A stretch of 58,448 nucleotides of DNA from a virus (IMGVR_UViG_3300020045_008024:1-58448); one strand, 5' to 3'; numbered from the stretch's first letter, positions 20,409 to 38,880 are shown. A program made the numbers and translations. Notes: generated from the sequence alone by a model not told the origin.

Positions 20409-20633
20409 TCAAGGTACGTTGTCAACTTCTACTCTGTCGTCAATGACGACACGAAGGTCATCAGCGTCTAGGTAGTAAACCACCGAAGACACCCTAGAGA
20501 AGGGAAGGGCTTTTGCCGGCCCCCTTCTCAATCTTATCACGTGCATCGGCTCATCATAGGTGCCGCCCATAAGGGCTGCACGAGCCCTGTAGTATTCGAG
20601 TTTACTGGTCTGATCTTCGCTCAAGAGCTTCAA
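20409..20633 (-). CDS. RAxLMG/DAxTLEP family small protein, divergent copy
   Basis: YYRARAALMGGTYD...YLDADDL; start uncertain (TTG). Confidence 0.6.
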   Translation of the reverse strand: MKLLSEDQTSKLEYYRARAALMGGTYDEPMHVIRLRRGPAKALPFSRVSSVVYYLDADDLRVVIDDRVEVDNVP

Positions 20634-20760
20634 CCAGATCTGCCGTCCGCACGTCGCTGTTATAGCGCCTGTTGTACTCGACGCAAGTCGTTTCCATCAG
20701 ACGGTTGTCTGGGGCGTTCGGGTATTTTTCCCGCATTTCGTCCCAGAGATTACAAAGCAT
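20602..20760 (-). CDS. Small hypothetical protein (52 aa, not in ORF track)
   Basis: Manual translation MLCNLWDEMREKYPNAPDNRLMET...; fills the gap between neighbours. Confidence 0.5.
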   Translation of the reverse strand: MLCNLWDEMREKYPNAPDNRLMETTCVEYNRRYNSDVRTADLVEALERRSDQ

Positions 20761-20764
20761 GATC

Positions 20765-21082
20765 TCACCGCGTTTCATTGATCTTCTCCAATATTCGTTT
20801 GATTTCCCTTATTTCCTGCACCCCGCTGAAGATAGCCGAGGTTCCCCCTGAATAGTTGTTAGAAAGAGCCTCCACTGCGCTTTTCACCCCCTTGATTTCG
20901 GCCGTGATGTTCCACGAATTACTTTGCGTCATTCGCACGTCAGCACAGGTGTCGTGGAGCTGGTCAGCGATGCGCTTCATTGAGACTGCGATTGATAGAA
21001 TTGCAGTCTGCATGTCCACCGGGGCCAAGCCGGGCTCGATACGCTCTAGCGTGGCCTCAAGGTTTAATGGGTGGGGTTCCAT
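20765..21082 (-). CDS. Hypothetical coiled-coil protein
   Basis: 105 aa; SIAVSMKRIADQL. Confidence 0.65.
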   Translation of the reverse strand: MEPHPLNLEATLERIEPGLAPVDMQTAILSIAVSMKRIADQLHDTCADVRMTQSNSWNITAEIKGVKSAVEALSNNYSGGTSAIFSGVQEIREIKRILEKINETR

Positions 21083-21090
21083 GTTACCTC

Positions 21091-22674
21091 CTAGGTAATA
21101 GGGTTCTGGTTGGTGGCGTCGGCAAACATCCCGAGGAATGCGTCCTGCACCTGCTGGTTACTCTGCAGTAGCTTGTAGATTTTCTTCTCAACCGGGGTCG
21201 CCTGCAGATGAAGAACGAGCTGCTTATGTTTCTGGCCGACACGCCGGATGCGAGCGTTGGCCTGCTCGTAGATTTCCAGCGAGGTGACAGGGGCGTACCA
21301 TACGATGGTGTTGGCCGTCGTCAAGGTGATGCCGTGAGCGAGGCACTGCGGGTGCGCCAGAAGGACTTTATATTTGTCCGTGTTCTGGAACAGGTTGAAC
21401 ACCTCTGACCGTTCATTGATCGGGGTGTTGCCGGACACGACAGCGTGCTCGATACCTTCGGCGGTAAGTGCGGCCGATATACCATCCAGCGCATGGATGA
21501 ATGGCACGAAAACAAGCACCTTCTGCTCTGCCGCGTCGATAGTCTCGACCAGCGCGGCAACGCGGTCCTCGCCGTCCAGCGCCACAGTGTTGCGCTCCTT
21601 GTCATATACCCATCCAGTGGCGACCTGAAGCAGCTTCATCATGACGGCACCAGCATTCGCGGCGGTGATCTCGCTTGACCCCACAGCAGCAAAGCATGCC
21701 GATGTGAGTGCGCGATACACCTTGAGCTGCTTGACGCCCATCGGGATGTCGCGGGTCTGCACCACGAGTTCGGGCAGCTCCTGCACGTCGTCCATGGTGA
21801 ACCGAACGGCCGGCTGCATGACAGAGTATGCAGTCTCGACGGCGTCTTTCTTCGGCATGAACTTGAACTGGTTGATGCGCACCATGACCTTATCACGGAA
21901 CGCATTGAAGTGGCGCGGAACTGTCGCCGGGGTAAGGATCTGGCACTGTGACCACACATCAGTTGGTGAGCGCGGCATCGGGCTTCCGGTCATCCCCCAT
22001 GCCCATTCCATCGTTGCAGCAAGGGCCTTCATGGCCTTCGTCCGCAAGCTCTTACCGTTGCGGTAAACAGCAAGCTCGTCGATGATCAACGTGTCGATGA
22101 TGCCGGCCTTGACCAGCGCGTTGATCTCCGGCTGCAGTAGCTTGGCCCCGTCATGGTTCATGATGTAGATATCAGCATCGGGGTTGTTCAGCTGCTCTAC
22201 TCTCTTGAGCCTCGAACTGTTGTGCACCACGATGCCCCGACGGTGTGGCAGGGTGTTGAACACCTCGCGCAGCCATGTGAACTTCAGGGTGGACAACGGT
22301 GCAATGACCAGCAGCTTTCGCGCCAGCCCCTGCGAATAGAGATAGTCCCATGACCACAAGGCAGATGAGGTCTTGCCGGTCCCCATGGAGTTGAGGACAT
22401 AGGCGCGCTTGTTCATGGTCAACAAGCCGGCAGTCTGGCGCTGTGCATCGAACGGCTTGAACGCGCCCGGCCATTCATAGTGGGTCAGGATCGGTGCCGG
22501 CACAGTGAAGCCCATCGTCCGCAGGATGAAGCACTCTGCCGGGTGATGCGGTACGAGGTGGAATTCCTTACCTTTCAAGGTAACGAGCTTGGCGTCGGGG
22601 AACATGTTCCCGATAGTCGTGTCTTTAGGCACTACGAGCATTTTGTGCGCAGCGCTCACAAACAATTCAGTCAT
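21091..22674 (-). CDS. SNF2-like superfamily 2 helicase
   Basis: MGTGKT, IIDE, MTGSP, HGITLT and QANARIRRVGQ motifs; start placed at MTELF. Confidence 0.9.
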   Translation of the reverse strand: MTELFVSAAHKMLVVPKDTTIGNMFPDAKLVTLKGKEFHLVPHHPAECFILRTMGFTVPAPILTHYEWPGAFKPFDAQRQTAGLLTMNKRAYVLNSMGTGKTSSALWSWDYLYSQGLARKLLVIAPLSTLKFTWLREVFNTLPHRRGIVVHNSSRLKRVEQLNNPDADIYIMNHDGAKLLQPEINALVKAGIIDTLIIDELAVYRNGKSLRTKAMKALAATMEWAWGMTGSPMPRSPTDVWSQCQILTPATVPRHFNAFRDKVMVRINQFKFMPKKDAVETAYSVMQPAVRFTMDDVQELPELVVQTRDIPMGVKQLKVYRALTSACFAAVGSSEITAANAGAVMMKLLQVATGWVYDKERNTVALDGEDRVAALVETIDAAEQKVLVFVPFIHALDGISAALTAEGIEHAVVSGNTPINERSEVFNLFQNTDKYKVLLAHPQCLAHGITLTTANTIVWYAPVTSLEIYEQANARIRRVGQKHKQLVLHLQATPVEKKIYKLLQSNQQVQDAFLGMFADATNQNPIT

Positions 22675-22873
22675 TGTACCAATCTCCACCTTTTGCTAGG
22701 GGTAGTCTTGCTTTACTTTGCCTCTCCCTAACTTGGTCTATCGACAAAGGCTCAAGGGACATAGCGTCTAGGCGGTTTCTATGGGGGTCTATACCTTCTG
22801 CATAGTAGCCAAACACCCCTACGTATACCATCCCCATCAGCTTGGCGCGCAGCTTGTGTTCTTCACGTGTCAT
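22667..22873 (-). CDS. RAxLMG/DAxTLEP family small protein
   Basis: MTREEHKLRAKLMGMVY...RLDAMSLEPL. Confidence 0.8.
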   Translation of the reverse strand: MTREEHKLRAKLMGMVYVGVFGYYAEGIDPHRNRLDAMSLEPLSIDQVRERQSKARLPLAKGGDWYND

Positions 22874-23048
22874 CTATTTCCTCGCAGATCCACGTCGTTT
22901 CTGTCTCGACCTGCACAGTTGAGGTCCGGCCGCACTCGTCACATTCGAGTAATGTCATGGTGTAGTAGAACTTGTCATCAGCAGTGAACTGCCGGCCGCA
23001 GCCAAAGTACGGGCATTTTGGGCCTTCCTTCGAATAGCTCTCAGACAT
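22863..23048 (-). CDS. Small zinc-ribbon protein
   Basis: CPYFGC...CDECG; start at MSESY. Confidence 0.65.
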   Translation of the reverse strand: MSESYSKEGPKCPYFGCGRQFTADDKFYYTMTLLECDECGRTSTVQVETETTWICEEIDDT

Positions 23049-23367
23049 TGCGCCACTCCCCTTTGACCATAAGCATGAGAACTGTGCGCAGCTGGTCGAC
23101 CGTTGTTGTCTGGTCGGTGCCGTCGATGACAAACGCGGCTCCGCCGGATTTCGTCACCCGCCGGATGCGCTCCACCTGACGGGGTGTTGGCTTTTTGCCG
23201 GGGGCCTTTGTCTCGATGCTGATAAAGTACCCACCAGCACTGCCGACCCAATCGAGGTGGCTTTCACCATAGCCGGACGGCACAGGCCAGAAGCCGTCTA
23301 CTTCGTCACCGAAGCTTGCGAGCACCTTGTTGACACTCGCCTTCACTTTACTTTCCGGGGTGGCCAT
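23041..23367 (-). CDS. VRR-NUC domain nuclease (resolvase-like)
   Basis: PESKVK...LDWV...IETKAPGKKPTPRQ...GGAAFVID. Confidence 0.85.
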   Translation of the reverse strand: MATPESKVKASVNKVLASFGDEVDGFWPVPSGYGESHLDWVGSAGGYFISIETKAPGKKPTPRQVERIRRVTKSGGAAFVIDGTDQTTTVDQLRTVLMLMVKGEWRNV

Positions 23368-23640
23368 CTATTTTCCTAACAACATGAGGGTTGCTTTCAT
23401 TCGGTCTGACGGGAATTCGTTGATGCTCTCCCTCATTGTAGCACCATCTCCCAGATCGAACACCACATACCAGTCCTCGAACTTGCTACCCTCTAGGTTA
23501 ACATCGAAGCATCTTATCCACTTCGGGTTACCACCAGTGATTTCTTTCACCAGCTGCTCTACAAGGCCGGCCGACATGTTGCGCTTGGAGCGCAGTGCGC
23601 CAGCTTCCATTTCCCGCTTGGTTCTCTCCGATAATTCCAT
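23368..23640 (-). CDS. Small protein with C-terminal FPSD...LMLL motif
   Basis: Ends NEFPSDRMKATLMLLGK. Confidence 0.7.
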   Translation of the reverse strand: MELSERTKREMEAGALRSKRNMSAGLVEQLVKEITGGNPKWIRCFDVNLEGSKFEDWYVVFDLGDGATMRESINEFPSDRMKATLMLLGK

Positions 23641-23657
23641 GGTCTTACCTTTCGAGG

Positions 23658-23909
23658 TTACCTCAGCAGTCTTATGCTAGCGTCCACCCCGGGGTCTAGC
23701 GTGAACCCCCACGGATCGTCTTCTGCCGGGAATAGTTGTGTCATTCCTACATACTGATGTGCTTTATCAGAAAGAACGACTACCCTTATCAGAAAAACCA
23801 TAGGGTCTGGCTGGTAAGCCACTTCAACCGCAAACCCTATCCCGGGAAACTTGGTTCGCAGCACCATTGAAACAACCTGCCGCAGTAGGACTCCGTTACC
23901 CGACGCCAT
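23658..23909 (-). CDS. Small protein ending ...ASIRLLR
   Basis: 83 aa; stop codon lies inside the palindrome at 23645. Confidence 0.6.
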   Translation of the reverse strand: MASGNGVLLRQVVSMVLRTKFPGIGFAVEVAYQPDPMVFLIRVVVLSDKAHQYVGMTQLFPAEDDPWGFTLDPGVDASIRLLR

Positions 23910-24585
23910 GGTGTTTACATTCCTTCACGATGCAGTGCTTGCGGCACAGGCCAGATGGCTTGGGTGGGAAGTTCATGGTGAGGTGTGCCTGCTCAAGTGT
24001 CATCACATCCGGCAGCACCCGCGCCCACGTCTCTTTGCGCTTGCTGCGGTAGAAGTCCCCGCGTGTTGCAGCATCGTCCTTCAGCCACCAGAATTCGGAG
24101 CGAACGGCATCGACCTGCGGGTAGTGGGCGAACACGCATTCAGCGATTAGCGCGAGCTGCTGGCTGTCCTCGATAATCTTGCCGGTCTTGTAGTCGATGG
24201 CCAGTGCCACCCGGCCGTCGATGCGCAGGTAATCAGCTATGGACCGGAACCATGTGTCTTTTGCAAACCAGTCGCATGCTGTCAGATCTTTGCGGATGGC
24301 GAGCTGCTGCTCAACGAGGATCTTGCCAGAGGCATTGACAAGGTTTTCAACCATCGGCTCGAAGTACTCCATCCCCTTGGGGAATGGTGTGCCATCTCGA
24401 ACTCGCTTCTCGAACGCCGTGTGCACCTGCTTGCCCCACTGCAGATGCTCGCCAGTGAAGTCCTCTTGGTATTTCTTCTCGTGGTCGATTTTCTGGTATC
24501 GAAAGCCACATGTCTTGAAGTTCTTCAGCTTGGAGTAAGACCAAGAGAATGCCTTCTGGTTCTTGCCGTTTGTATAAGTGACCAT
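23896..24585 (-). CDS. PD-(D/E)xK Cas4/RecB-like exonuclease
   Basis: WSYSKL..C, G...H, E, IADY, IDYKTGK, QL and C-terminal PSGLCRKHC..C cluster. Confidence 0.85.
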   Translation of the reverse strand: MVTYTNGKNQKAFSWSYSKLKNFKTCGFRYQKIDHEKKYQEDFTGEHLQWGKQVHTAFEKRVRDGTPFPKGMEYFEPMVENLVNASGKILVEQQLAIRKDLTACDWFAKDTWFRSIADYLRIDGRVALAIDYKTGKIIEDSQQLALIAECVFAHYPQVDAVRSEFWWLKDDAATRGDFYRSKRKETWARVLPDVMTLEQAHLTMNFPPKPSGLCRKHCIVKECKHHGVG

Positions 24586-24606
24586 GTCGTTACCTTGCGA
24601 AGTAAA

Positions 24607-24993
24607 TTACTTGAGGAGCCGCAGCTGTGTGACGAGGGCGTCAGACGGGAACAGCTCGTTGTCGTCTTCCAGTGTTACCGGCTGCCCCTTCGACACGACA
24701 AACACAAATGTCGTTCTCGGGCCTGCATGGGCGGCAATGAAGTCGAACAGCTGCACACCGACTGGAACTCGCAGCCGCATCCCGATCATCTCAAGCAGCT
24801 CGCGGCTTTTGTTTTCGTGCGCCATTGGCAAACTCCACCTAGGGCGGGCCGTGCTAACTGACCTGGATAACAACGGATCACTGCCGACACCAGAAAGAAA
24901 TCCGAGGTCGTCGAGATTATTCTTGTGCTGGCTTTCGAAGTATTTTTGGGCCGCTGCAAGGCCAGATGTGTTCTTACCGCCAGACAATGGCAT
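24607..24993 (-). CDS. Protein with C-terminal FPSD...LRLL motif
   Basis: Ends ELFPSDALVTQLRLLK. Confidence 0.7.
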   Translation of the reverse strand: MPLSGGKNTSGLAAAQKYFESQHKNNLDDLGFLSGVGSDPLLSRSVSTARPRWSLPMAHENKSRELLEMIGMRLRVPVGVQLFDFIAAHAGPRTTFVFVVSKGQPVTLEDDNELFPSDALVTQLRLLK

Positions 24994-25304
24994 CAGGCTT
25001 CTCCCATGAATTCTTTCACGCGGAAGTCAACACAATTGCGATCTTCCTCGCTGATCCAGTAGCCGACATTTGGCTTGTTCTCGATGAACAGGCCATGGGC
25101 TTCGAGCTTCGACCGCGTGCGGCTAACCGCGATCTTGATGGGGGCCTTGACCCCGGTGTAGTCCTTCAGCTCTTTTGCCGTCACGATAGAGCACCGTGAC
25201 AGGCAAGACAGGACTGCTGCCTGCGAGGGGGAGATGTCAAAGATGCGGCCGAGAACGCGCTCATGCTCCCGGTCGCGGTCTGGCAGTTTAATTTTGCTGA
25301 TCAT
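24993..25304 (-). CDS. Stand-alone OmpR/CtrA-type winged-helix DNA-binding protein
   Basis: IKIAVSRTRSKL...IENKPNVGYWI matches the recognition helix and wing pattern; own promoter upstream. Confidence 0.7.
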   Translation of the reverse strand: MISKIKLPDRDREHERVLGRIFDISPSQAAVLSCLSRCSIVTAKELKDYTGVKAPIKIAVSRTRSKLEAHGLFIENKPNVGYWISEEDRNCVDFRVKEFMGEA

Positions 25305-25337
25305 TGGTGATCTTTCTTGGTGGTGGATACCCTCTGG

Positions 25338-25366
25338 TATATACACTGTTACCAAAGGGTTGTCAA
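25338..25366 (-). promoter_or_regulatory. Sigma70-type promoter with CAAC-N7-TAAC operator
   Basis: TTGACAACCctttGGTAACagtgTATATA, 17-bp spacer. Confidence 0.8.
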
Positions 25367-25701
25367 CGACTTTCTTTGCCACCCGGCCGCCGCGCCAGCT
25401 GCAGTTCGACGGCACGATCAAGGTTCTTCGTTGCAGTCTTGAGCATCTTTGCTACTGCGTCGGCCCCTACTGCGTTGAACGACACACCACTACCAAACAT
25501 AGCCGCGACTTCGAGCTTGACGATGATAGGTGCAAACACCGATCTCCATTCGGTGCACTTATCCGATGGGCCAATGTCGAGCGGGTCATCCGGCTCCGGC
25601 GGCATTACCTTGAGGGTAACCATCGGCGGTGCCGGGCGCTTCATCGCGACATAGTAACCGACCATGACGCCGAAACCATATGCCATAAGGTCTACCATCA
25701 T
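25363..25701 (-). CDS. Hypothetical protein with N-terminal membrane anchor
   Basis: 112 aa, hydrophobic N-terminus, ATGA coupling. Confidence 0.55.
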   Translation of the reverse strand: MMVDLMAYGFGVMVGYYVAMKRPAPPMVTLKVMPPEPDDPLDIGPSDKCTEWRSVFAPIIVKLEVAAMFGSGVSFNAVGADAVAKMLKTATKNLDRAVELQLARRPGGKESR

Positions 25702-25817
25702 TGCTTGTGCCCTTTATGAATGTGGATCAGAAGCGCAAAGGCGAGAAACCATATGGCCACGCTGTTTGCACCTGCTGCGGAAGACCCGATTGCAAACCCT
25801 ATTAATGAGGCTATCAT
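25698..25817 (-). CDS. Small membrane peptide
   Basis: MIASLIGFAIG...IWFLAFALLIH; ATGA overlaps at both ends. Confidence 0.5.
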   Translation of the reverse strand: MIASLIGFAIGSSAAGANSVAIWFLAFALLIHIHKGHKQ

Positions 25818-26035
25818 GGGCGTGTGCTTTCTATAAAACTTTCCCCGAGGAGCACCATCGCTTTTGCTTCCTCTACAGTGCGGGGGAGCATGACAAACCC
25901 GTCTTGCACATACTGCCCGCCGGCTGGGTGTTGCAGCATTCTTATGGCAGCGTGCACGCTGTCCGGTGGATGTTTGGCTGCGAAGTCCAGCGCCCTGAGA
26001 ACGCTGGTTCTGGTGTACAATATGTCTTGTGTCAT
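25814..26035 (-). CDS. Hypothetical protein
   Basis: 73 aa, ATGA-coupled to the polymerase stop. Confidence 0.65.
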   Translation of the reverse strand: MTQDILYTRTSVLRALDFAAKHPPDSVHAAIRMLQHPAGGQYVQDGFVMLPRTVEEAKAMVLLGESFIESTRP

Positions 26036-27927: not shown

Positions 27928-28028
27928 TGCGTTAGGTCCAGTCCTTGTCTATGGTGGGGCGCGGCCCTGTTGTGGGGTTGGGCTGCATGGCGGGAGGGGG
28001 CTGCGTTATGCGTGGCCCCCTCTTCCTG

Positions 28029-28775
28029 TTACATGTCCAGCCAGATGTCTTCGTCATCCATTTTGATCTTGATATCCGGCTGGTTGATGCACAGCATCGT
28101 GTCGCTTTGGTTCGGGTTCTTACCTTGCAAGGTATTCATGAGAACCTGTGAGGCGAACCAGTTGGACACATGCTTTACAATGGCGCGCTGTGCGATGGTG
28201 TACCCAACACCCGGCGGGGCGCGCTTGATGTCGCGGACCTTGTCAGCTATCTTGGAGTGGCCGGCAGACTTCAGGAGATGCACGATGGGCGGGAACGTGT
28301 GCCGCATCTGCTCATACGTCTCGCACTTTACCACGACAATAGACACAGCCTTTTTGAACAGGTGCCGGTCGACAGTATCTGCGAAGGTCTGCTGCAGTAA
28401 TGGCATGAAGTAGTCCCGGTGCTCCCAGAACTTGTCGCTGATCATGTCTGGCGCATGCCTTGGGAAAAGCATGCCGGGGTCGCTTCTCGGCGCTTGGAAC
28501 CTGAAAGGAAGTGACACCTCGCTACCTGCTTTGTTGGGCAGCAGGGGGTGGTCTGCCATTACCCTGAAGGTAACAAGCCCATGCCCGGGGTCGAGCTGTG
28601 CCGGGTTTACATTCGCCCGAACGAAGTCAACATACCGCAGCTCTTTCTCTGTCCAGAACAAGCTTAGAAACTTGTTTCTGTCGGCGTACTGCGCATGGGC
28701 GCCTGCAATAAAGTTCGAGGTAGTCTCTGATCTCTGGATGAGGTCATCGACAACTTTTGTTGTTTTAGTGGTCAT
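28029..28775 (-). CDS. Hypothetical protein (weak resemblance to Nmad5-type proteins)
   Basis: 248 aa; CETYEQMRHTFPPIVHLL segment. Confidence 0.65.
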   Translation of the reverse strand: MTTKTTKVVDDLIQRSETTSNFIAGAHAQYADRNKFLSLFWTEKELRYVDFVRANVNPAQLDPGHGLVTFRVMADHPLLPNKAGSEVSLPFRFQAPRSDPGMLFPRHAPDMISDKFWEHRDYFMPLLQQTFADTVDRHLFKKAVSIVVVKCETYEQMRHTFPPIVHLLKSAGHSKIADKVRDIKRAPPGVGYTIAQRAIVKHVSNWFASQVLMNTLQGKNPNQSDTMLCINQPDIKIKMDDEDIWLDM

Positions 28776-28917: not shown

Positions 28918-28946
28918 AGTATAGGTTACTTGCTGGTTGCCGTCAA
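28918..28946 (-). promoter_or_regulatory. Sigma70-type promoter with CAAC-N7-TAAC operator
   Basis: TTGACGgCAACCagcaAGTAACcTATACT, 17-bp spacer. Confidence 0.75.
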
Positions 28947-29378: not shown

Positions 29379-29642
29379 TTACTTGTCAGCTATTGGGGTT
29401 GGTCTTGGGCGGCTGTCATGCCCCGGGCCTTCACCCCCTGTGCCACCACACCATTCGTTCGCCCGCCCTACGAGTGTGGCTTCGCTTATGGGCTCAAGTG
29501 TTTCAGCGTCTATCGCATGCATGTGTGATAGGTGCTTACTCTCAACGTCGGCGTAGAAGCAATAGCTCCCATCCCGCCAGTCATAAACCCGCCCCATCAG
29601 AATGGCGCGGGCTCTGTGTTGTTCATGTGTCAGCTTCTGCAT
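29379..29642 (-). CDS. RAxLMG/DAxTLEP family small protein
   Basis: MQKLTHEQHRARAILMGRVYDWRDGSY...IDAETLEPI. Confidence 0.8.
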   Translation of the reverse strand: MQKLTHEQHRARAILMGRVYDWRDGSYCFYADVESKHLSHMHAIDAETLEPISEATLVGRANEWCGGTGGEGPGHDSRPRPTPIADK

Positions 29643-29895
29643 AGGGTGTTGTCCTTGGTGCGTTGCCGGGGCCATAATATATGACAAATACCTGCCAATC
29701 AGGATCTTTGTTTCTGTGCGCTACTTGCTCACCCGTCATTGGCTTTAGTGTCTGCGCATCAACTACCCACCACGTAGCTACACTACCGTCCCGAAAAGTG
29801 CCCATTGGCCGGTAATAGGTGCCATTGCGCCAGTCATACGCAAGGCCCATCAGCATCGCACGGGCCTTGTGTTGTTCATGTGTCAGCTTCTGCAT
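29623..29895 (-). CDS. RAxLMG/DAxTLEP family small protein
   Basis: MQKLTHEQHKARAMLMGLAYDWRNGTY...VDAQTLKPM. Confidence 0.8.
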   Translation of the reverse strand: MQKLTHEQHKARAMLMGLAYDWRNGTYYRPMGTFRDGSVATWWVVDAQTLKPMTGEQVAHRNKDPDWQVFVIYYGPGNAPRTTPYAEADT

Positions 29896-31204: not shown

Positions 31205-31218
31205 TGGCTCGATCCTTG

Positions 31219-31987: not shown

Positions 31988-32267
31988 TGTTACCCCCACG
32001 GTAACTTGCCAGCACATCCGAGATATAGAGTGCTGCAGCTAGTGCACCAAAAACCCTGTAGTCTGTACCATTAGAATTAGGCTGGGCAGCACGGACGACT
32101 ATGAGCCCGTTGTGTGCTGCGTTCATCACTAGGATGTGCCTATGCGTGCCGGGGACAGGGATCGCTAGCCACTGGCATTCCTCATCCCATAACTCCCCTT
32201 CAAACCCCAAAGCTATCGGTCCCATTGCCGTCTCCATTGATGGTGGGCGCACCATTACGCCCACCAT
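31971..32267 (-). CDS. Hypothetical protein
   Basis: 98 aa; start uncertain. Confidence 0.6.
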   Translation of the reverse strand: MVGVMVRPPSMETAMGPIALGFEGELWDEECQWLAIPVPGTHRHILVMNAAHNGLIVVRAAQPNSNGTDYRVFGALAAALYISDVLASYRGGNNGKEA

Positions 32268-32282
32268 TACCTCGCAAAGTAA

Positions 32283-33374
32283 TCAGCTCTGCACGTCGAT
32301 CTGCGCCATGAGGCTGGCGTTCGCGATCACCCACTTGTTGAACGCCGGGGTGATGACAAGCCGGCGGTCGCGGTCAACAGCCGCCTTGGCGAAGATGACC
32401 GAGAATTCCTTCGGCATGCGGTCGACGTACTCGATAACCGGGGAAGCCGTCTCGGCGGTGACGCGGTGGGCGAGGTTGTAGCACACCAGCATCGCCGCAT
32501 CCGGCTTGGTCGGCACCTTGACGCCCTTGGGCGAGGCAATGATGTCCTCGTACTTGGGCATCTCGCGTTCGAGTTTGACGAAAGAGAACAGCTGCGCTGC
32601 CGCCGCATCACCGATCATGCCGGCAATTTCTTCCATCAGGCTCGGATCTTCCGGCAGATTGCCGTCCTCGTCGCGCGGGATGACCGACAGGTAATCATCG
32701 GCGGCGACCGCACTACGAGGCGTGCACCACGGACCCTGCTTTTCAGGCACGCCGTCGCTGAAGACGATCTGCGGGTTCTGGTTGGTGAAGGTCCGCATCA
32801 GGGGCGACACGCCGCGCTTGTTGGCCCATGCGTTCCAGCTGTCGAGGTCGTCGTCAACGTCGATCTCCATGCGGCGGTTGATGAGGTGGTCGAGTTCCTT
32901 GGTCGAGCCCGAGCGGTCCTTCTGGCGGTTGCCTGCCATCCAGATCACCCAGCCTTCGGGCAGGGCATGCGGGCCGAGCCGGCCGGAAAGGGCAGCTTCA
33001 CCGATGACTTTCTTGACATCGACATCGGCCTTGTCCATCTCGTCGACGACGATGATGCCACCGTCGTACTCGGAGATGCGCTTACCTTCGCGGGTACGGA
33101 ACCAGAAGGGGTCGGTGTAGACGCTTTCCATCCGCTCGATGCCGTCTTCGCCGGTCACACGCTTCGGCACCAGATAGCCGATGCTGTCTGCCGGGGTGAG
33201 AAGGGGAGCGTTGATGACGACAAGACCGAGGTTCTTGCCGGTTACCTTGGAAAGTAATGCCGGCGCTGCCGACAGGACTTCGGTCTTGCCGCGACCCGGT
33301 GCAGACTTGAGGTAAATGCACTTCTGTGCAGCGTACCAAGCGGGCATGCGGGAAAGAATGGTAGAGAGCTTCAT
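32283..33374 (-). CDS. AAA+ ATPase (MoxR/CbbQ-like partner of the vWA protein)
   Basis: Walker A SAPGRGKT, Walker B VVDEMDK, MAGNR, LINR, TPRS. Confidence 0.9.
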   Translation of the reverse strand: MKLSTILSRMPAWYAAQKCIYLKSAPGRGKTEVLSAAPALLSKVTGKNLGLVVINAPLLTPADSIGYLVPKRVTGEDGIERMESVYTDPFWFRTREGKRISEYDGGIIVVDEMDKADVDVKKVIGEAALSGRLGPHALPEGWVIWMAGNRQKDRSGSTKELDHLINRRMEIDVDDDLDSWNAWANKRGVSPLMRTFTNQNPQIVFSDGVPEKQGPWCTPRSAVAADDYLSVIPRDEDGNLPEDPSLMEEIAGMIGDAAAAQLFSFVKLEREMPKYEDIIASPKGVKVPTKPDAAMLVCYNLAHRVTAETASPVIEYVDRMPKEFSVIFAKAAVDRDRRLVITPAFNKWVIANASLMAQIDVQS

Positions 33375-33416
33375 GATAAAGTCCTTTGAGTGCGCGCTAC
33401 GTCAGCGCTGAGGTTA

Positions 33417-33445
33417 ATTATACAGGGTTACAAACAGGTTGTCAA
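33417..33445 (-). promoter_or_regulatory. Consensus sigma70 promoter for the AAA-vWA operon, with operator
   Basis: TTGACAACCtgttTGTAACcctgTATAAT, perfect -35 and -10 with 17-bp spacer. Confidence 0.9.
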
Positions 33446-33480
33446 TAGGTATGTGTTCCTAAGTTAATAGGATCACAGTC

Positions 33481-33804
33481 CTAGTCGTAGTAGCCGACGA
33501 ACTTCAGGCCGCTGTCATCGACGCGGGTGAATTCCTTGTCAGTCGACAGCAGGTAGTCCTGCATGAAGCGCGGGAGCTTTGCGTTCTCGTCGCGGTCGAT
33601 ATGCAGGATGTTGCGGTCCGCTTCCAGCCACGACAGCATCGGCGGCACGTGGTCGAGCTTGCCATAGCGGAACAGGCGAGCACGTTCGATGGTTTGTTCG
33701 GTCATTTTGAAATCTCCGTTGAGGGCGTAGTCTATTATGGTGAAGGCGATCCCCCACCATAACCAGATGAGGACCGGCAGCAGTGCTATTGTTACCCAAA
33801 TCAT
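33481..33804 (-). CDS. Hypothetical protein (possible N-terminal TM; alternative start 33705)
   Basis: In-frame ATGs at 33804 and 33705, the latter with GGAG RBS. Confidence 0.55.
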   Translation of the reverse strand: MIWVTIALLPVLIWLWWGIAFTIIDYALNGDFKMTEQTIERARLFRYGKLDHVPPMLSWLEADRNILHIDRDENAKLPRFMQDYLLSTDKEFTRVDDSGLKFVGYYD

Positions 33805-33819
33805 TGCTGCCGGCTCCTG

Positions 33820-34269
33820 TTATTGGCTTGCTTCCATCTCCTCGTACAGCTTGTACAAGCCAGCGGCGTAGACGATGGCACCGAGCGCTTCGGCCTTGGC
33901 ACCGGAGAAGTTCTTGTTACCTGCCATGGTAACACTCTCCTGCGCTTTCTTCGCCACCTGATAGGCATGCCCACCCGGGCCGACCATACGAGCGATCGAC
34001 AAGATGGGCTGATCGTGCCAGTCACGTTGCCCGACGGGGCTTGCAGCGTGGCGCTCTTTGCCTTTGCCGGTGGCCGCTTGCGCCAGAGCAAGCGCGAGGA
34101 TGCGCTGCAGGTGGGCGTAAGGGCCAGCCGGCAAGGTGGCTGTCGAGGTCTTTGCAACAGCTGTGTAAATGTCGCGAGCACGTTCGATGGTTTGTTCGTT
34201 CACGCTTGCAGCTGCCTCTGCTGCAATGTCGGCATCAACCTTGTCCATTGCGTCCTTGAAGTCTTTCAT
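33820..34269 (-). CDS. Conserved phage all-helical protein (QAATGKGKERHA family; possible nucleotide pyrophosphohydrolase fold)
   Basis: QAATGKGKERHA...QPI...QVAKKAQE...EALGAIVY; function tentative. Confidence 0.65.
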   Translation of the reverse strand: MKDFKDAMDKVDADIAAEAAASVNEQTIERARDIYTAVAKTSTATLPAGPYAHLQRILALALAQAATGKGKERHAASPVGQRDWHDQPILSIARMVGPGGHAYQVAKKAQESVTMAGNKNFSGAKAEALGAIVYAAGLYKLYEEMEASQ

Positions 34270-34272
34270 TGT

Positions 34273-34701
34273 CTAATCCTTGAGTGCATGGTCGAGCTTG
34301 CGGAGTTGCTTCTCGATCCGGTCATATTCGAAGGCGAGATACTTCTCTATCTCGTTGCGGTCCCCCTCTCGTTTGCGCATTGCCAGCTCCATCTTGCGGA
34401 TGACAGGCAGCGGTTTTACTTCCGAGGTAACAGGGCCAGCGAACATGCGCCGCCGCCTGTCTTCCTCAAACTCTGTCATCGGCCGGTCCACGAACGGGAC
34501 ATCCGATACCTGAATGTCCCCCTCGCCGCCATACGGTGCCAATGAATAGAAGCCGTGCATGCAGTCAACGTTGTTGCACACATGCCGGCGCATGTACCCG
34601 TCAGCGTAAGGCGACGCCATGCGAATGGTTGACCCCGACCCGCATTTCCTGCAGGTGAGGTAAGCTTTCGGGATCTGAGTGCGCGGAACCCGCATCTTCA
34701 T
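34273..34701 (-). CDS. Ogr/Delta-like zinc-finger protein
   Basis: CRKC-X21-CNNVDC..F resembles P2 Ogr C-X2-C-X22-C-X4-C. Confidence 0.6.
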   Translation of the reverse strand: MKMRVPRTQIPKAYLTCRKCGSGSTIRMASPYADGYMRRHVCNNVDCMHGFYSLAPYGGEGDIQVSDVPFVDRPMTEFEEDRRRRMFAGPVTSEVKPLPVIRKMELAMRKREGDRNEIEKYLAFEYDRIEKQLRKLDHALKD

Positions 34702-35261
34702 GACCAGTCCTCCCCGAACGCGCCGCGCTCGTATTCGATGTTCTCGTCTTGAGGGCTTACCTCAAGAGGTAATGGTGTCGGGGCGAGGCGGTCGGACAGC
34801 ACCACAACAGGGCGCAGCTGCACCTTGCCGTCGACCAATGTCCTTACGGTCGTTGGTTCAAGGTCGCCCTCGACCTCGACGAGGGTGCGCTCCTGCCCGG
34901 GTGCCTGCGCCCCATACCACCAGCGATCCCCATAGGTGTCATAGTGGATGAGATTGTCCAGCCTGTTGTCCATCTTCAGGCCGTTGATATGCTCCATCCA
35001 CCCGGTCGGCCATGTGCCTGTCGAGATGTACCATGCAAGGTAATCAGCGCGGAAATACTCGACGCGCCGCTCACCCCTGCCGACATCCTGATTACTGACC
35101 GGCAGAGGGATGTGCAGGTGTCCGTCTTTGTGTGAGGCACCTGTCGACACGTAGGGCGGCATCGTCTGCAGCACCCCTGTCTCCGGGTCATAGTCCACCA
35201 ACTCTATCAAGCATTCGAAAGAGCCTGTGTATTTCTTCGCCTTCCGGCCCATCGACTTCAT
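34698..35261 (-). CDS. HNH endonuclease-domain protein, possibly degenerate
   Basis: YDPETG...ADYLAW...EHINGLKMDNRLDNL. Confidence 0.7.
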   Translation of the reverse strand: MKSMGRKAKKYTGSFECLIELVDYDPETGVLQTMPPYVSTGASHKDGHLHIPLPVSNQDVGRGERRVEYFRADYLAWYISTGTWPTGWMEHINGLKMDNRLDNLIHYDTYGDRWWYGAQAPGQERTLVEVEGDLEPTTVRTLVDGKVQLRPVVVLSDRLAPTPLPLEVSPQDENIEYERGAFGEDWS

Positions 35262-35475
35262 CTTGTTCTTCCTCTCCTACGGGCAGCATCACCCAGCGTT
35301 CCATATAAGTGAGTTTGTCAGTCGCGGTAAGCTCAACCAGTGTTTCGGCGTCATACCATATCTCTTTCACTCCGCCAAACCCGCTAGGGAAGTCGTCTCT
35401 TGAGTAGACGCCAAGCCCTCTCGTGTATTTCATCCCGAGCAACATTGCACGGGCGATGTGTTCTTCATCCGTCAT
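35188..35475 (-). CDS. RAxLMG/DAxTLEP family small protein
   Basis: MTDEEHIARAMLLGMKY...YDAETLVEL. Confidence 0.75.
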   Translation of the reverse strand: MTDEEHIARAMLLGMKYTRGLGVYSRDDFPSGFGGVKEIWYDAETLVELTATDKLTYMERWVMLPVGEEEQDEVDGPEGEEIHRLFRMLDRVGGL

Positions 35476-35533
35476 CTAGCCCGAGCCTCTTGTTCGAGAT
35501 GGTGTTTGACCCTTTCATGAGCCCAGCGTAAAG

Positions 35534-35704
35534 TTACCGGCGCATTGCCTCGCCTATCGGGAGTGGTTCCAGCGTGTTTGCGTCGATGGACCCAGTGTAT
35601 TTGTATTTCTGCCCGCCGGGCGACCGATCCCGGTAGGCATGCGTTGCGCTGTCGTACCAGAGCCCCAGCATGCGGGCGCGGGCATAGTGTGCTTGTCCGT
35701 TCAT
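35534..35704 (-). CDS. RAxLMG/DAxTLEP family small protein
   Basis: MNGQAHYARARMLGLWYD...IDANTLEPL; AGGAG RBS. Confidence 0.8.
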   Translation of the reverse strand: MNGQAHYARARMLGLWYDSATHAYRDRSPGGQKYKYTGSIDANTLEPLPIGEAMRR

Positions 35705-35723
35705 GGGGGCTCCTGAGTGCGCG

Positions 35724-36002
35724 TTACATGTCATCGTAGATCGGCGGCGGCTTGCTACCACCCGACGCTGTCAGGCCGAGCGTGTTGTGCCGGTACGACC
35801 GCATGAGTTTGTCACCCGCCGGCCCGGCCCGCTGTGCCGTGGTGAGGCTGGCCCACTCTTTACGCAGGCCAGCAAGGGTTACCTCGAAAGTAACAGCAGC
35901 CCCTTCAGGCACTGGCCTTGGGGTGATCAGGTCGACGGCAGGGCGAGGGGTAAAGATCTCCATTTTGCCGGTGATCGGGTTGCGTCGTTTAGTCCCTTTC
36001 AT
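35724..36002 (-). CDS. Hypothetical protein
   Basis: 92 aa, RRNPITGKM; AGGAG RBS. Confidence 0.65.
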   Translation of the reverse strand: MKGTKRRNPITGKMEIFTPRPAVDLITPRPVPEGAAVTFEVTLAGLRKEWASLTTAQRAGPAGDKLMRSYRHNTLGLTASGGSKPPPIYDDM

Positions 36003-36252
36003 AGTCGCTTGCTCCTAGTTCGCCTGCCTTTACCTTAGCCCTTCGCAGTGAGTAAGCACCCCAAGGCATAGGCTCTAAAGTGTCCGCATCCAGATACGCC
36101 GGGTCTGGTGTTGTGGTGTCCCCGAAAGGGAGTGTGCTCCTAACTTCGGTGCTAGTCTGCATGTCAAACGAATGGTCGGTTTCATCATACCCCATTCCCA
36201 TCAGCGCAGCCAGCAGCGTGAAATACTCGGTCGGGTGTTCACTCCTTGCCAT
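35989..36252 (-). CDS. RAxLMG/DAxTLEP family small protein
   Basis: EYFTLLAALMGMGYD...YLDADTLEPM. Confidence 0.75.
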   Translation of the reverse strand: MARSEHPTEYFTLLAALMGMGYDETDHSFDMQTSTEVRSTLPFGDTTTPDPAYLDADTLEPMPWGAYSLRRAKVKAGELGASDYERD

Positions 36253-36433
36253 GCCCTTCGTACTCCTTGATGATGTCGCCGTCCTTGAACAGCGTCACGT
36301 TCTCGCCGGCAGCGCGCCCGTGCTCGTGCTTGGACAATTCGGCCCAAGAGTTGAACAGGCGGCGTGCGTTGTTCTCGTGCTCGCCTTCGAACACGAGCCC
36401 GATGTTGCCGACGAACACCTCAAACTTCGCCAT
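36239..36433 (-). CDS. Hypothetical early protein
   Basis: VFVGNIGLVFEG...GRAAGENVTLFKDG. Confidence 0.7.
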   Translation of the reverse strand: MAKFEVFVGNIGLVFEGEHENNARRLFNSWAELSKHEHGRAAGENVTLFKDGDIIKEYEGHGKE

Positions 36434-36695
36434 TGTCGTCACCCCCGTCTTTTACCTCAGAGGTAACACCGTCGGCCTTGAGTGCGCGCAACGCCTTGAG
36501 CGTAACCTTGCCCTTGCCGCCCAGCGACACCCAAGAAATGCGCAGCGCCTCGCCGTCGCACATCCACGAGTTGGCACCGTTGAGCGTGTTGACAACGCTC
36601 TCCATGTACCGCCCCAGCTTGACCGGATCTTTGGCCCACTGGAAGGTGTGCCTAAGATTTGTCTTGTAGGTCTTCAGGAATTCTTCACGTGTCAT
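36420..36695 (-). CDS. Hypothetical early protein
   Basis: MTREEFLKTY...; GAGGAG RBS. Confidence 0.65.
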   Translation of the reverse strand: MTREEFLKTYKTNLRHTFQWAKDPVKLGRYMESVVNTLNGANSWMCDGEALRISWVSLGGKGKVTLKALRALKADGVTSEVKDGGDDNGEV

Positions 36696-36696
36696 G

Positions 36697-37314
36697 TTAT
36701 CGTCTCCTCTCGACAGGTGGGCCGCGACGGCGCGGGTTGTTGTATGTGCGGCGGATCTCCCGCACTTTGGACCGTGACACACCGAAGCGCTCCATCAGCT
36801 CCTCGACTGTGACGTTGGTGGCTGTGCCGATCTGCTCGAACTCCCATGCCTCAAGGGGACCGCGCCCCGATGCAAAGGGCCGACCGATAGGCTGTGGCTC
36901 TGGTTTCGTCTCGTTGAACGTGTCGAGCATCGTTGCCTGATACGTTTTACCTGTGAGGTAATTGATGGTGCGGTCGCATTCATCCCGGGGGATGTATGGC
37001 ACGTTCTTGAACCGCCCCACCTGCTTCACACGTGACACGGTGTCATAGGATATGCCCCAGTCGGCCGCGATCTGTGCACGTGGTCGCGTGTCGGCAGCGA
37101 TCTCGTCGACCTCTGCCCTGTATAGCGATGACATCCGACCCCCACGCAATCGCGGTGGCCTCACCCCATGGATAACCTCGTCCTCTTCCTGCGACAGGTA
37201 GGACGGACCTGTTTTTGCCGGGACCGACGCCAGCAGCTTGTCGACAAGACTGTTGCCGCGCCGATCTTCCGGCTCGTTCGGGTTGTTGATGTTGATGCTG
37301 AATGGCTCTTTCAT
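36697..37314 (-). CDS. Protein with two helix-turn-helix segments
   Basis: RAQIAADWGISYDTVSRVK and VEELMERFGVSRSKVREIR. Confidence 0.7.
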   Translation of the reverse strand: MKEPFSININNPNEPEDRRGNSLVDKLLASVPAKTGPSYLSQEEDEVIHGVRPPRLRGGRMSSLYRAEVDEIAADTRPRAQIAADWGISYDTVSRVKQVGRFKNVPYIPRDECDRTINYLTGKTYQATMLDTFNETKPEPQPIGRPFASGRGPLEAWEFEQIGTATNVTVEELMERFGVSRSKVREIRRTYNNPRRRGPPVERRR

Positions 37315-37325
37315 TTCGTCCTCTC

Positions 37326-37451
37326 TTACTTTGCGAGGTAACGGGCAGCGCTGACCACTACCGGCGACCATGCGAAGAAACTTGCATACACCAGCACGAG
37401 TGTGGCGGCAACGAGCACGAACTTCACGAGGTCGTTAATCAATGTGAACAT
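37326..37451 (-). CDS. Small membrane peptide (41 aa, not in ORF track)
   Basis: MFTLINDLVKFVLVAATLVLVYASFFAW...; GAGGAGG RBS; stop in the palindrome at 37326. Confidence 0.55.
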   Translation of the reverse strand: MFTLINDLVKFVLVAATLVLVYASFFAWSPVVVSAARYLAK

Positions 37452-37764
37452 TCTTCGAGTCCTCCTCGTAAGAGAGTGGCATGATGTTGCCAGCCGATAC
37501 AGACGGCGCGTTTACCGGCTGATAGCCCGACGGTATGATGTCGGCATGCAGGGCGAACTGCCGCAGCAGGCTGTCACCACGGGTGATCTGGTAGCCGTCG
37601 AACCCGCGATCACGGCAGACTTTGACTGCAGCCCACTTCATATTGTATAGGGACTGTCGGCCGTCCAGCCGGATAATAGCGCGATCCCCGCAGGGCTCGA
37701 CCCAGCGCTGCCGTCCTGTCGCAGCATCCGTTTCGAGGCGGTAAAATTGTGCGAAGTGTTTCAT
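37435..37764 (-). CDS. Hypothetical early protein
   Basis: EPCGDRAIIRLDGR motif; ATGA overlap. Confidence 0.7.
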   Translation of the reverse strand: MKHFAQFYRLETDAATGRQRWVEPCGDRAIIRLDGRQSLYNMKWAAVKVCRDRGFDGYQITRGDSLLRQFALHADIIPSGYQPVNAPSVSAGNIMPLSYEEDSKNVHID

Positions 37765-38078
37765 TGTTCTTTCTCCCATGGTGCTGTCTTGTCATCTCTT
37801 ACCTCATCAGGTAACGCCCACGGCATGGGCAATGGATTGCCTAGGCCCATATATGACGTGCCATTAAATAGCCTAAGCTCTTCCGCATCGGCCGCATCCA
37901 CGGGTTCGAACGTGTTGCAGTCAATCAGGAAGCCACTTGCCGGCAATGCCGACGTAGGCTCTTGCGCGTTGTCCACATACGTCCCATCGCGCCAGTCGTA
38001 CCAGCGCCCCATAAGGCTGGCACGCAGCCTGTGCTCGGCGTGAGTGAACAGCGGCTTGTGAGTGCGCGGCCCGTTCAT
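37761..38078 (-). CDS. RAxLMG/DAxTLEP family small protein
   Basis: FTHAEHRLRASLMGRWYDWRDGTY...IDCNTFEPV; ATG 38078 overlaps upstream TGA. Confidence 0.8.
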   Translation of the reverse strand: MNGPRTHKPLFTHAEHRLRASLMGRWYDWRDGTYVDNAQEPTSALPASGFLIDCNTFEPVDAADAEELRLFNGTSYMGLGNPLPMPWALPDEVRDDKTAPWEKEQ

Positions 38079-38326
38079 GAGTGGATGTGCCCATCGTGCT
38101 CGATGCCGACCCACATGCCGCACCAATTCACCATCACGCTGCCGAAGTCGCCCATCAGGAACTCGGCACGGAACTCTTTGTAAGAGATCGGCCCGAAGTT
38201 CACCACGTCGCCGTTCATATCGTTCGATGTTAGGTTGCCATAGCTGTTGAAATACAGCGGCGAGCGATCGTACATGATCTTGGCGGCGCGGCGTTGTGCA
38301 CGTGTGATGTTGATATGGCGTGGCAT
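38075..38326 (-). CDS. Hypothetical early protein
   Basis: Ends WCGMWVGIEHDGHIHS; AAGGAG RBS. Confidence 0.7.
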   Translation of the reverse strand: MPRHINITRAQRRAAKIMYDRSPLYFNSYGNLTSNDMNGDVVNFGPISYKEFRAEFLMGDFGSVMVNWCGMWVGIEHDGHIHS

Positions 38327-38338
38327 TTCTGTCTCCTT

Positions 38339-38551
38339 TTACTTTAGAGGTAATGCCGCCCATGCGGCGACTACACGGTCGTTCAACTCTCGTATAGTAA
38401 GTGGTTCTAGCGTGTCGGCGTCGATGCGTTGCGACACAAAGCTAAAGTCTGGGGTGTAGGTGTTTGTCCGTGGTGAATAGCGCATGCCCATCAGCTTGGC
38501 GCGCAGCCGGTGCTGCTCTTTCGTGAGTTTACCTTCTGGGGTAATGTCCAT
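38339..38551 (-). CDS. RAxLMG/DAxTLEP family small protein
   Basis: LTKEQHRLRAKLMGMRY...IDADTLEPL. Confidence 0.8.
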   Translation of the reverse strand: MDITPEGKLTKEQHRLRAKLMGMRYSPRTNTYTPDFSFVSQRIDADTLEPLTIRELNDRVVAAWAALPLK

Positions 38552-38553
38552 GC

Positions 38554-38880
38554 TTAGTCGCCTCCCCCTATCAGGAACCCGGCTTTATTTACTCCGGCAT
38601 GATGGGCTGTGCTGTACCTAGCGCGGCACTCCTCGAAACTCAACTCCTGCAGCGTGTCCGCATCGATATACCCCACCCACATTTTACCAGCTGCCGGACG
38701 ATACGTATGGGACATTAGGGAATAGTACACGCCCATCAGCTTGGCGCGCAGCTTGTGCTGCTCACGTGTCAGCGGCTCGGATGTGCTACGGTCCGACGGT
38801 TTTACCTCAGAGGTAACCTCTTTCTCGCTGCCGTCCCCCACTGCTGCCATAATATCACAGTCCTCGTTTGTTAGCTGCAT
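38554..38880 (-). CDS. RAxLMG/DAxTLEP family small protein
   Basis: LTREQHKLRAKLMGVYY...IDADTLQEL; start uncertain. Confidence 0.75.
   Translation of the reverse strand: MQLTNEDCDIMAAVGDGSEKEVTSEVKPSDRSTSEPLTREQHKLRAKLMGVYYSLMSHTYRPAAGKMWVGYIDADTLQELSFEECRARYSTAHHAGVNKAGFLIGGGD

Follow-up and report, generated by a model that had tools for sequence, protein, structure and literature searches.

We identified a family of ten small paralogous genes in the early arm of IMGVR_UViG_3300020045_008024, a 58,448-bp virus record that is complete, has direct terminal repeats and is called the window wherever its whole length is meant. The ten genes (m1 to m10), all on the minus strand, are true paralogues in a family without a characterised member, and they almost certainly form a real, folded, lineage-specific multigene family. 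Our preferred reading of their function, to which we give a probability of roughly 45%, is that they are mostly acidic binders directed at host proteins, an early multigene family that diversifies fast and that the phage can do without. The closest cultured relatives of the virus are four near-identical Rhizobium phages, RHph_TM27A, TM27B, TM29 and TM3_14A (GenBank MN988461-63 and MN988472), with genomes of about 60.9 kb. The DNA polymerase of this group is 65% identical to that of the window in amino acid (aa) sequence, and its helicase gene is 76% identical in nucleotide (nt) sequence. Because these closest cultured relatives are Rhizobium phages, the host of the window phage is likely to be a member of the Rhizobiaceae.

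Family membership and gene starts

An earlier note on this DNA had described ten minus-strand open reading frames (ORFs) of 56-108 aa that share an N-terminal motif (N-box) and a C-terminal motif (C-box) on either side of a variable segment. All ten ORFs are present, with their stops where the note had placed them, and they share one domain of about 55 aa. A regular expression for the two boxes matched nine copies; the tenth (m7, at 35989) has a degenerate N-box. A profile made from the cores of the ten copies (A2) matched exactly those ten among the six-frame ORFs, with E-values between 1.9e-21 and 1.9e-29 and the next-best window ORF at E 3.2, but there is circularity in these values, since the ten copies themselves had gone into the profile. 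Support that is free of this circularity comes from an all-against-all BLASTP search of 44 early-arm proteins, in which each of the 26 pairs at E <= 0.01 joined two family copies, and from the detection of 13 copies in RHph_TM27A by the window-only profile. A broader profile of 147 rows (A3), the ten window copies included, found the same ten copies in the window and no eleventh; its best E-value against 20 shuffled windows was 0.22. The ORFs, both profiles and BLASTP thus confirm a family of ten.

The sizes given in the note needed some revision. Four starts were corrected, to 29642 (not 29687) for m3, 35704 for m6, 38078 for m8 and probably 38850 for m10, so that the ten proteins have 56-105 aa. 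The m10 start is placed at 38850 because a Shine-Dalgarno-like site (CGAGGA) precedes the ATG there and not the one at 38880, and the 200-aa ORF of m8 is an over-extension of a 105-aa gene. All ten frames are open, and recognisable Shine-Dalgarno sites precede seven or eight of the ten copies.

The copies differ in their surroundings and in their ends. The most divergent is m1 (20409..20633, 74 aa, TTG start; A2 E 1.9e-21, A3 E 1e-5, BLASTP to m7 E 6.5e-5), which follows the SNF2 helicase gene and has a C-box variant ending in DLRVVI. The end of m2 (22667..22873, 68 aa, A2 E 1.3e-21) overlaps the start of the same helicase gene; its ATG is preceded by a Shine-Dalgarno-like GAGGA and its tail ends in DWYND. 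The tandem genes m3 (29379..29642, 87 aa, A2 E 1.9e-26) and m4 (29623..29895, 90 aa, A2 E 1.9e-29) overlap by 20 nt and end in TPIADK and TPYAEADT, respectively; m3 belongs to a YDWRDG subfamily, and its length agrees with a database gene call (P0002). The m5 protein (35188..35475, 95 aa, A2 E 6e-22) has an acidic C-terminal extension, and its gene overlaps the start of the longest reading of an HNH endonuclease ORF. The shortest member, m6 (35534..35704, 56 aa, A2 E 6.8e-24), is a bare domain with an isoelectric point (pI) of 9.6; AGGAG stands 6 nt before its ATG, and a database gene call (P0004) likewise has 56 aa. The degenerate N-box of m7 (35989..36252, 87 aa, A2 E 3.8e-23, A3 E 1.1e-11) has phenylalanine for histidine and two leucines for arginine, and this copy has the longest variable segment, 32 aa. 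Another YDWRDG member, m8 (37761..38078, 105 aa, A2 E 3.8e-26), whose tail has two PW-acidic motifs, is coupled to the gene upstream, its ATG overlapping the stop of that gene; the database gene call is again 105 aa (P0003).

The last two copies, m9 (38339..38551, 70 aa, A2 E 1.7e-22) and m10 (38554..38850, 98 aa, or 108 aa from 38880; A2 E 1e-22), are 47% identical (BLASTP E 1.1e-12), and m9 has the shortest variable segment, 18 aa. They are the second and first genes after a sigma-70-type promoter-like site (TTGACT-17-TATACT, 38935-38907, minus strand), as the note had stated, although what it called an early promoter is a consensus match only. The site agrees with the consensus at 10 of 12 positions, is the best of its kind between 34 and 42 kb, and lies at the edge of a low-GC block at 38-40 kb. 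A 36-nt direct repeat (38916-38951 and 39099-39134, 72% identical), ending in GGGGTAACCCTAAA, overlaps the site with its first copy; the second copy lies at a distance of 183 nt, where a low-GC region separates the divergent arms.

Predicted fold and composition

AlphaFold2 with family alignments was applied to two of the ten copies, m9 (147 rows) and m4 (48 rows from a tail-bearing subfamily). The 70-aa m9 model (predicted local distance difference test, pLDDT, 90.3; predicted template-modelling score, pTM, 0.74) consists of a helix at residues 11-20, strands at 23-26 and 31-34, short bridges at 43-44 and 50, and a helix at 53-65. The 90-aa m4 model (pLDDT 82, pTM 0.71) has the same order of elements plus a third helix. 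On these models, m9 and m4 share one compact α/β fold. The N-box, L-T-x-E-E-H-x-A-R-A-M-L-M-G-x-x-Y-D, is modelled as a capped helix (α1), a glycine stop and strand β1; the G-x-Y that follows is strand β2, so that Y-D...G-x-Y forms a β-hairpin; and the C-box, I-D-A-x-T-L-E-P, supplies strand β3 together with the turn that precedes helix α2. Both boxes are predicted to pack together as a constant core, with the β2-β3 loop and the C-terminal extension as variable surfaces. The earlier note had pictured one scaffold displaying variable loops, and the two modelled copies bear this out for the fold, the boxes as core and the segment as β2-β3 loop; the binder or anti-defence role that it attached to the scaffold stays an inference.

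The loop measures 18-32 aa in the ten copies, counted from the N-box tyrosine to the C-box aspartate, close to the 17-32 aa of the note, and 13-33 aa (median 22) in 132 parsed representatives of the wider family. A C-terminal P-[YW]-[AEGVC] motif with acidic residues occurs in 32 of those 132, m4 and m8 among them; the tail of m3, with its degenerate TPI form, falls outside the pattern. In the m4 model, β-bridges join C-terminal residues 83 and 86-87 to residues 4-5, and the pLDDT over the final ten residues is 85. Since the tail folds back onto the domain in this model, it is probably structural rather than a free docking peptide. Copies of the m2 type end in W-Y-(P)-x-D.

We considered whether the E-x-H...D residues could form a catalytic or metal site and rejected this, because each is replaced by non-equivalent residues in some copies. 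The near-invariant histidine is phenylalanine, tyrosine or leucine in m1, m7 and several TM27A copies, the arginine can be methionine, alanine, threonine or leucine, and the aspartate is cysteine or histidine in two copies, leaving no strictly invariant polar residue in the wider family. No cysteine or histidine cluster is present in the family. Polar residues that can be replaced in this way speak for a scaffold rather than an enzyme. Most of the proteins are acidic, and the median pI is 5.2; the pI is below 6 in 85 of the 132 representatives and above 8 in 18.

The models also bear on a suggestion of the earlier note that the N-box is a capsid-targeting tag. The T4 internal proteins IPI-III carry a capsid-targeting sequence, and IPI* is an anti-restriction protein; in targeting of this type, the motif lies at the extreme N-terminus, outside the fold, and is removed by a prohead protease. 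By analogy, the N-box would load the family proteins into the prohead for injection. The ten proteins are, like IPI-III, small phage proteins with a short shared N-proximal motif, and the window phage packages large internal or ejected proteins (a PHROG internal virion protein and a 2376-aa DarB-like protein). In contrast to the cleavable tag of IPI-III, however, the N-box is an internal structural helix in the models, buried in a confident globular fold (block pLDDT 92-96) and conserved together with the C-box. Its distance from the N-terminus varies among the copies, from 0 to about 30 residues, and in the tail-bearing subfamily the residues that immediately precede it are paired with the C-terminus of the same protein (m4 model). 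The genes lie in the early arm, apart from the structural genes, and no prohead protease was present among the 63 window proteins scanned against PHROGs, a set that does not include every ORF. The tag is therefore not supported, and we regard capsid-targeted internal proteins as a very improbable account of the family.

Comparison with known families and structures

The earlier note did not recognise the family, and neither did the libraries that we searched. The best Pfam-A match of the ten copies had E 0.041, under the cut-offs, and one of 147 members had a single sub-threshold match; in PHROGs v4 the best match (E 0.0065) was to a family of unknown function, and in NCBIfam 20 none of 14 proteins matched. 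The best E-value of the profile against PDB sequences was 0.99. Foldseek gave no PDB match at E <= 0.001 for the m9 or m4 model, and VIA-align against 48,161 chains gave best Z scores of 3.9 (m9) and 2.8 (m4), below the tool's own noise guidance. The only structural matches in BFVD were unnamed models of the A0A7S5 series (two at E <= 0.001), which we take to be rhizobiophage homologues, a guess from the accession series that the database output does not confirm. The ESM Atlas gave no usable feature match, and its structure neighbours had template-modelling scores by query of 0.40-0.56, below the bar for naming a family. The family and its predicted fold are thus without a counterpart in the libraries searched, although an absent match does not prove a new fold. 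Among the titles and abstract openings listed in literature searches, none describes the family, and no paper was found that contains the names RHph_TM27A, RHph_TM3_14A or RHph_TM29.

Two apparent relatives were rejected. YD/Rhs repeats were considered for the Y-D-x-x-x-G-x-Y hairpin, but no Pfam RHS/YD match was found in the 147 members, which have one hairpin each. The best structural neighbour of m9 is PipX (PDB 2xg8_D and 3n5b_B; Z 3.9 and 3.5, root-mean-square deviation 3.6 and 3.5 Å over 56 and 57 residues, 7% and 5% identity), which also aligns with m4 (Z 2.4 and 2.0). PipX is a small adaptor protein with a partner-binding role, and likewise has a small β-rich core followed by C-terminal helices. 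Its Z scores are below the level that the tool treats as meaningful, and we do not consider it a relative.

The same structural comparisons bear on the idea that the family consists of small nucleic-acid-binding regulators of transcription or translation, each with its own site. In its favour, the domain is a small α/β unit with xRRM/RRM domains among its weak structural neighbours (Z 2.1-3.3), two of the copies (m6 and m9) are basic, and a repeated palindrome, abundant in the genome, needs a reader. We nevertheless consider regulators improbable: most of the parsed representatives have a pI below 6, there is no conserved basic surface (only two arginines are partly conserved, and both are replaceable), and even the best structural match is below the meaningful level.

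Selection on the protein

At the invariant A, G, Y and D columns of the ten copies, codon positions 1 and 2 are 100% identical, whereas position 3, with an identity of 0.36-0.53, is close to random. Conservation of the boxes therefore acts at the amino acid level. Mean third-position identity is 0.42 in the N-box, compared with 0.27 in the loop and 0.26 in the C-box. The tandem copies m3 and m4 have the same first 28 nt and 81% nt identity in the N-box, whereas their loops, at 25%, cannot be aligned. This pattern suggests gene conversion or recombination between copies at the N-box, although methionine and codon bias account for part of it. A comparison of three near-identical Rhizobium phages gave 12 single-nucleotide polymorphisms (SNPs) in the family ORFs, six non-synonymous and six synonymous, at a density of 3.3 per kb compared with 4.5 per kb elsewhere.

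These data are relevant to whether the copies could be near-neutral or selfish filler, in which duplication and recombination carry small ORFs into intergenic hot spots, where they persist although the phage gains little from them. The m3/m4 pattern counts in favour of filler, and so do other points: the number and position of copies vary among close relatives, copies sit at gene junctions and overlap their neighbours, and m5 and one TM27A copy adjoin HNH endonuclease genes. Filler would not be expected, however, to keep its fold-forming residues by protein-level selection while synonymous sites are saturated, nor to keep ten open frames, most of them with Shine-Dalgarno sites. Moreover, phages whose polymerases are only 65% identical have retained 10 to 15 copies, which take up about 4% of a compact genome, and Pfam scans found no nuclease or mobility domain in the family proteins. 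We judge filler to be an unlikely explanation.

Distribution in phages, metagenomes and bacteria

The earlier note had proposed a hidden Markov model search of phage and metagenome proteins and a comparison of copy numbers in related genomes. Among 1.84 billion representative proteins we found 297 clusters at E <= 0.001, 36 of them at E <= 1e-10. The named sources of family proteins annotate them as 'hypothetical', and the largest contigs with members are 58-62 kb long. Among the 150 matches listed of the 297, all are small proteins except P0024 (2329 aa, 16 stretches) and P0091 (627 aa, 8 stretches), which are repetitive, probably spurious and without a YD/Rhs domain, and which we excluded from the alignments. 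No longer or fused form was found at E <= 0.01, which is weak evidence. One 152-aa metagenome protein (P0023) has two family domains in tandem, the sole multi-domain form seen, and no Pfam match.

The RHph_TM27A group contains true homologues; they too lie in the early arm, and some of them flank the SNF2 helicase gene on both sides, as in the window. Thirteen copies were found in RHph_TM27A with the window profile and 14-15 with profile A3, one of the 15 being doubtful (opposite strand, E 1.6e-4). All are annotated as 'hypothetical protein' or unannotated, and their cores are 34-56% identical to the window copies. The arrangement differs in that 10 of the 13 TM27A copies form one cluster at the start of its early arm, whereas the window copies are more scattered. 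Three TM27A copies (MN988461.1, 23072-23227, 34419-34586 and 40086-40238) fall in gaps between annotated coding sequences and are consequently absent from the GenBank annotation.

With the helicase as an anchor we collected 80 metagenome loci (495 kb, helicase 49-80% identical); a family copy lies within 4 kb of the helicase in three of them, and all three helicases are at least 77% identical. Fragments of partial relatives (L002, L003, L008 and L075) contain one to three copies each. No copy was found at E <= 0.01 in seven IMG/VR relatives with a completeness of at least 90% and helicases 39-60% identical, although the same search recovers 10 copies from the window and 15 from TM27A. DNA patterns back-translated from the N-box were also tried on IMG/VR: the degenerate pattern gave no match and a looser one gave two, both in records without the family and thus chance matches. 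With their diverged paralogues, varying copy number and absence in outgroups, the ten copies fit the descriptive class of a viral lineage-specific multigene family.

In bacteria, 400 Rhizobiaceae genomes were scored (their candidates in part; one further genome was left unscored), and a copy was found only in the seeded genome of Rhizobium mayense. This lone copy (scaffold L006, 10001-10213, opposite strand) lies in a defence island (5943-15722), between the Zorya type I genes ZorA and ZorB (E 3.6e-299 and 1.8e-122) and the type I restriction-modification genes hsdS, hsdM and hsdR. We count it in favour of a host-directed role, as a single case. PADLOC, which covers defence and not counter-defence proteins, gave no match to the copy.

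Divergence and turnover

Core replication proteins of the window are 58-81% identical to those of TM27A, L002 or L003 (helicase 78-81%, DNA polymerase 65-68% and primase 65-70%), whereas family copies are 30-49% identical (best local match). Many small ORFs beside the family copies have no match at all in TM27A, L002 or L003.

Our tree of the family (30 rows, 58 columns) was weakly resolved, with one of 27 inner branches starred. It contained a post-helicase group of m1, a TM27A copy (19988), L003 and L008 (Shimodaira-Hasegawa-like approximate likelihood ratio test, SH-aLRT, 91) and a pre-helicase group of m2, TM27A and L002 (SH-aLRT 81). Elsewhere m5 grouped with the TM27A copy at 3604-3954 (85), and m3, m4 and m8 with one TM27A copy (84); m9 and m10 formed a window-only pair (90), and pairs confined to TM27A were also present. 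A copy abuts the helicase start in one of 59 eligible loci, and in four of the seven closest eligible loci (L079, L082, L009 and L011) this slot holds unrelated small genes or none. The metagenome locus L075, with a helicase 77% identical, has three tandem copies directly upstream of the helicase (479-1044), compared with one in the window; two of the three end in Y/W-Y-P-H-D, a tail also found on the TM27A pre-helicase copy.

Judged from these comparisons, the family is undergoing birth-and-death evolution in accessory hot spots. The note was correct that copies are inserted singly between core replication genes, but the slots are variable hot spots and not conserved partnerships. The family is accessory, restricted to one lineage and fast-evolving, which fits a host-directed binder repertoire better than a housekeeping role.

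The positions of some copies could also be explained if the paralogues were phage-internal accessory subunits that dock on the SNF2 helicase, the DNA polymerase, the HNH protein or a pair formed by an AAA ATPase and a phrog_1314-matching protein, which we take to be a VWA protein, and tune or bridge these partners. Consistent with this, m2 and its TM27A and L002 counterparts overlap the helicase start, the post-helicase group (m1, TM27A 19988, L003 and L008) is held together in the tree, m3 and m4 lie between the VWA protein and the DNA polymerase block, and m5 abuts the HNH gene. On the other side, a copy abuts the helicase start in only one of the 59 eligible loci, close relatives have unrelated small genes or none in that slot, and the majority of TM27A copies are in the early cluster, distant from replication genes. 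The seven complete relatives have kept the helicase without the family, so the shared helicase-centred module works without it. A predicted complex of m2 with the SNF2 helicase scored 0.00 against a mark of 0.32, which is not evidence either way. Accessory subunits are, in our view, about as doubtful as filler.

Proposed function

According to the preferred reading, that of host-directed binders, the family genes would be transcribed with the early arm by the host RNA polymerase. They would be dispensable for the conserved replication cycle, and would be duplicated, lost, moved and quickly diverged. Most likely, each paralogue would bind a different host protein and then block or redirect it, in takeover or in counter-defence, with its specificity residing in the β2-β3 loop and the tail. 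The mode of action would be non-enzymatic, stoichiometric protein binding being the most economical mechanism. Host proteins are the likeliest targets because the family is absent from relatives with the same helicase-centred module, because copies cluster right behind the early promoter-like site, and because the proteins are acidic.

A more elaborate form of this proposal is a repertoire of binders diversified by recombination, in which the N-box DNA would serve as a homology arm for the exchange of loop-plus-tail cassettes, and each lineage would assemble its own inhibitors against Rhizobium defences. The R. mayense copy would then be a captured member, the fold would be new, and the family would be the counterpart, in a small phage, of the immune-evasion multigene families of large eukaryotic viruses. 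We hold this version to be somewhat less probable than either filler or accessory subunits.

Several observations weigh against host-directed binders. The turnover of copies suits neutral filler genes as well as an arms race, and a variable loop and tail are expected of any small, weakly constrained family. The positions of three copies next to replication genes, on either side of the helicase, are conserved, and could mean a phage-internal role. The SNPs of the three near-identical phages give no sign of positive selection on that time scale, in numbers too small to decide. The common fold rests on models of only two of the ten copies, and two copies, m6 (pI 9.6) and m9 (pI 9.3), are basic and not acidic. 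Finally, the ten copies had no match to the anti-defence families included in PHROGs, which are only some such families, and the comparison with known anti-defence proteins is limited to them. The analysis gave none of the results that, by the earlier note, would refute its proposal: no characterised family was matched, the two modelled copies share a fold, and the boxes are under selection.

Gene content and other repeats of the window

The minus-strand arm spans roughly 15-39 kb and holds the replication genes. These encode a 1033-aa primase/helicase, the SNF2 helicase, a VRR-NUC nuclease and a PD-(D/E)XK exonuclease, a family-A DNA polymerase, the phrog_1314-matching protein with the AAA ATPase (TM27A orthologue annotated as 'metallopeptidase domain-containing'), and the HNH endonuclease (34698-35261, minus strand, in its longest reading; the true start may be further downstream). 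A PHROG scan placed the portal, terminase, internal virion proteins and the DarB-like virion protein in the plus-strand arms. The last of these (6149-13279, plus strand, 2376 aa) matches DarB-like antirestriction, transglycosylase/endolysin and virion-protein PHROGs, and probably represents a large virion protein that is ejected. In that case the phage would already have a candidate packaged counter-defence factor, separate from the ten-copy family.

The window also contains a 15-nt palindrome, TTACCTCNGAGGTAA, at 19 sites with at most two mismatches, compared with 0.03 expected (7587, 8520, 8992, 13284, 16401, 17412, 18914, 21084, 31219, 31753, 34416, 35879, 36452, 36947, 38339, 38802, 54987, 55176 and 55606). 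RHph_TM27A has 10 sites in 40.9 kb, compared with 0.10 expected. Many of the palindrome copies fall within ORFs and encode V-T-S-E-V-K there, including one in the m10 N-terminal extension (38802-38816), and others lie at gene junctions such as the helicase stop and the m9 stop. The palindrome may be a site for a dimeric phage regulator, or an RNA hairpin with a Shine-Dalgarno-like GAGG.

A 21-nt repeat occurs in four copies (20395-20415, 22561-22581, 23638-23658 and 28113-28133). Read on the minus strand, it consists of a small inverted repeat, AGGTAAG and, in the two best copies, an ATG; these two coincide with the starts of genes 19996-20412 and 23368-23640. The repeat may serve these genes as a common element for translation initiation or regulation. 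A 29-nt repeat (33676-33704 and 34174-34202, 97% identical) lies inside the adjacent minus-strand ORFs 33481-33804 and 33820-34269; both contain the peptide EQTIERAR, and BLASTP at E <= 0.01 does not link them.

Comparable families and significance

Lineage-specific multigene families are known from large DNA viruses, for example MGF110, MGF360 and MGF505 of African swine fever virus and the ankyrin and Bcl-2-like families of poxviruses. The window family resembles these in its many diverged paralogues of a small scaffold, its location near the early genome end, its varying copy number, its absence in outgroups and its acidic proteins. It is unrelated to them in sequence and fold, and whereas an immune-evasion or host-range function is established for the families of eukaryotic viruses, we only infer one here. 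Such families are therefore already known as a kind; unusual in this case are the clean constant-variable-constant architecture and the small genome, in which, at only 58 kb, ten copies amount to about one gene in eight or nine.

Expansions of comparable kind in large eukaryotic viruses usually serve host manipulation. The RHph_TM27A group is cultured on Rhizobium etli and R. phaseoli, and with a confident scaffold, a clear variable loop, cultured relatives and natural outgroups that do not have the family, the function of these proteins is directly testable. If the copies are counter-defence or takeover factors, each phage could provide 10-15 new inhibitors, and the family a new small binding scaffold.

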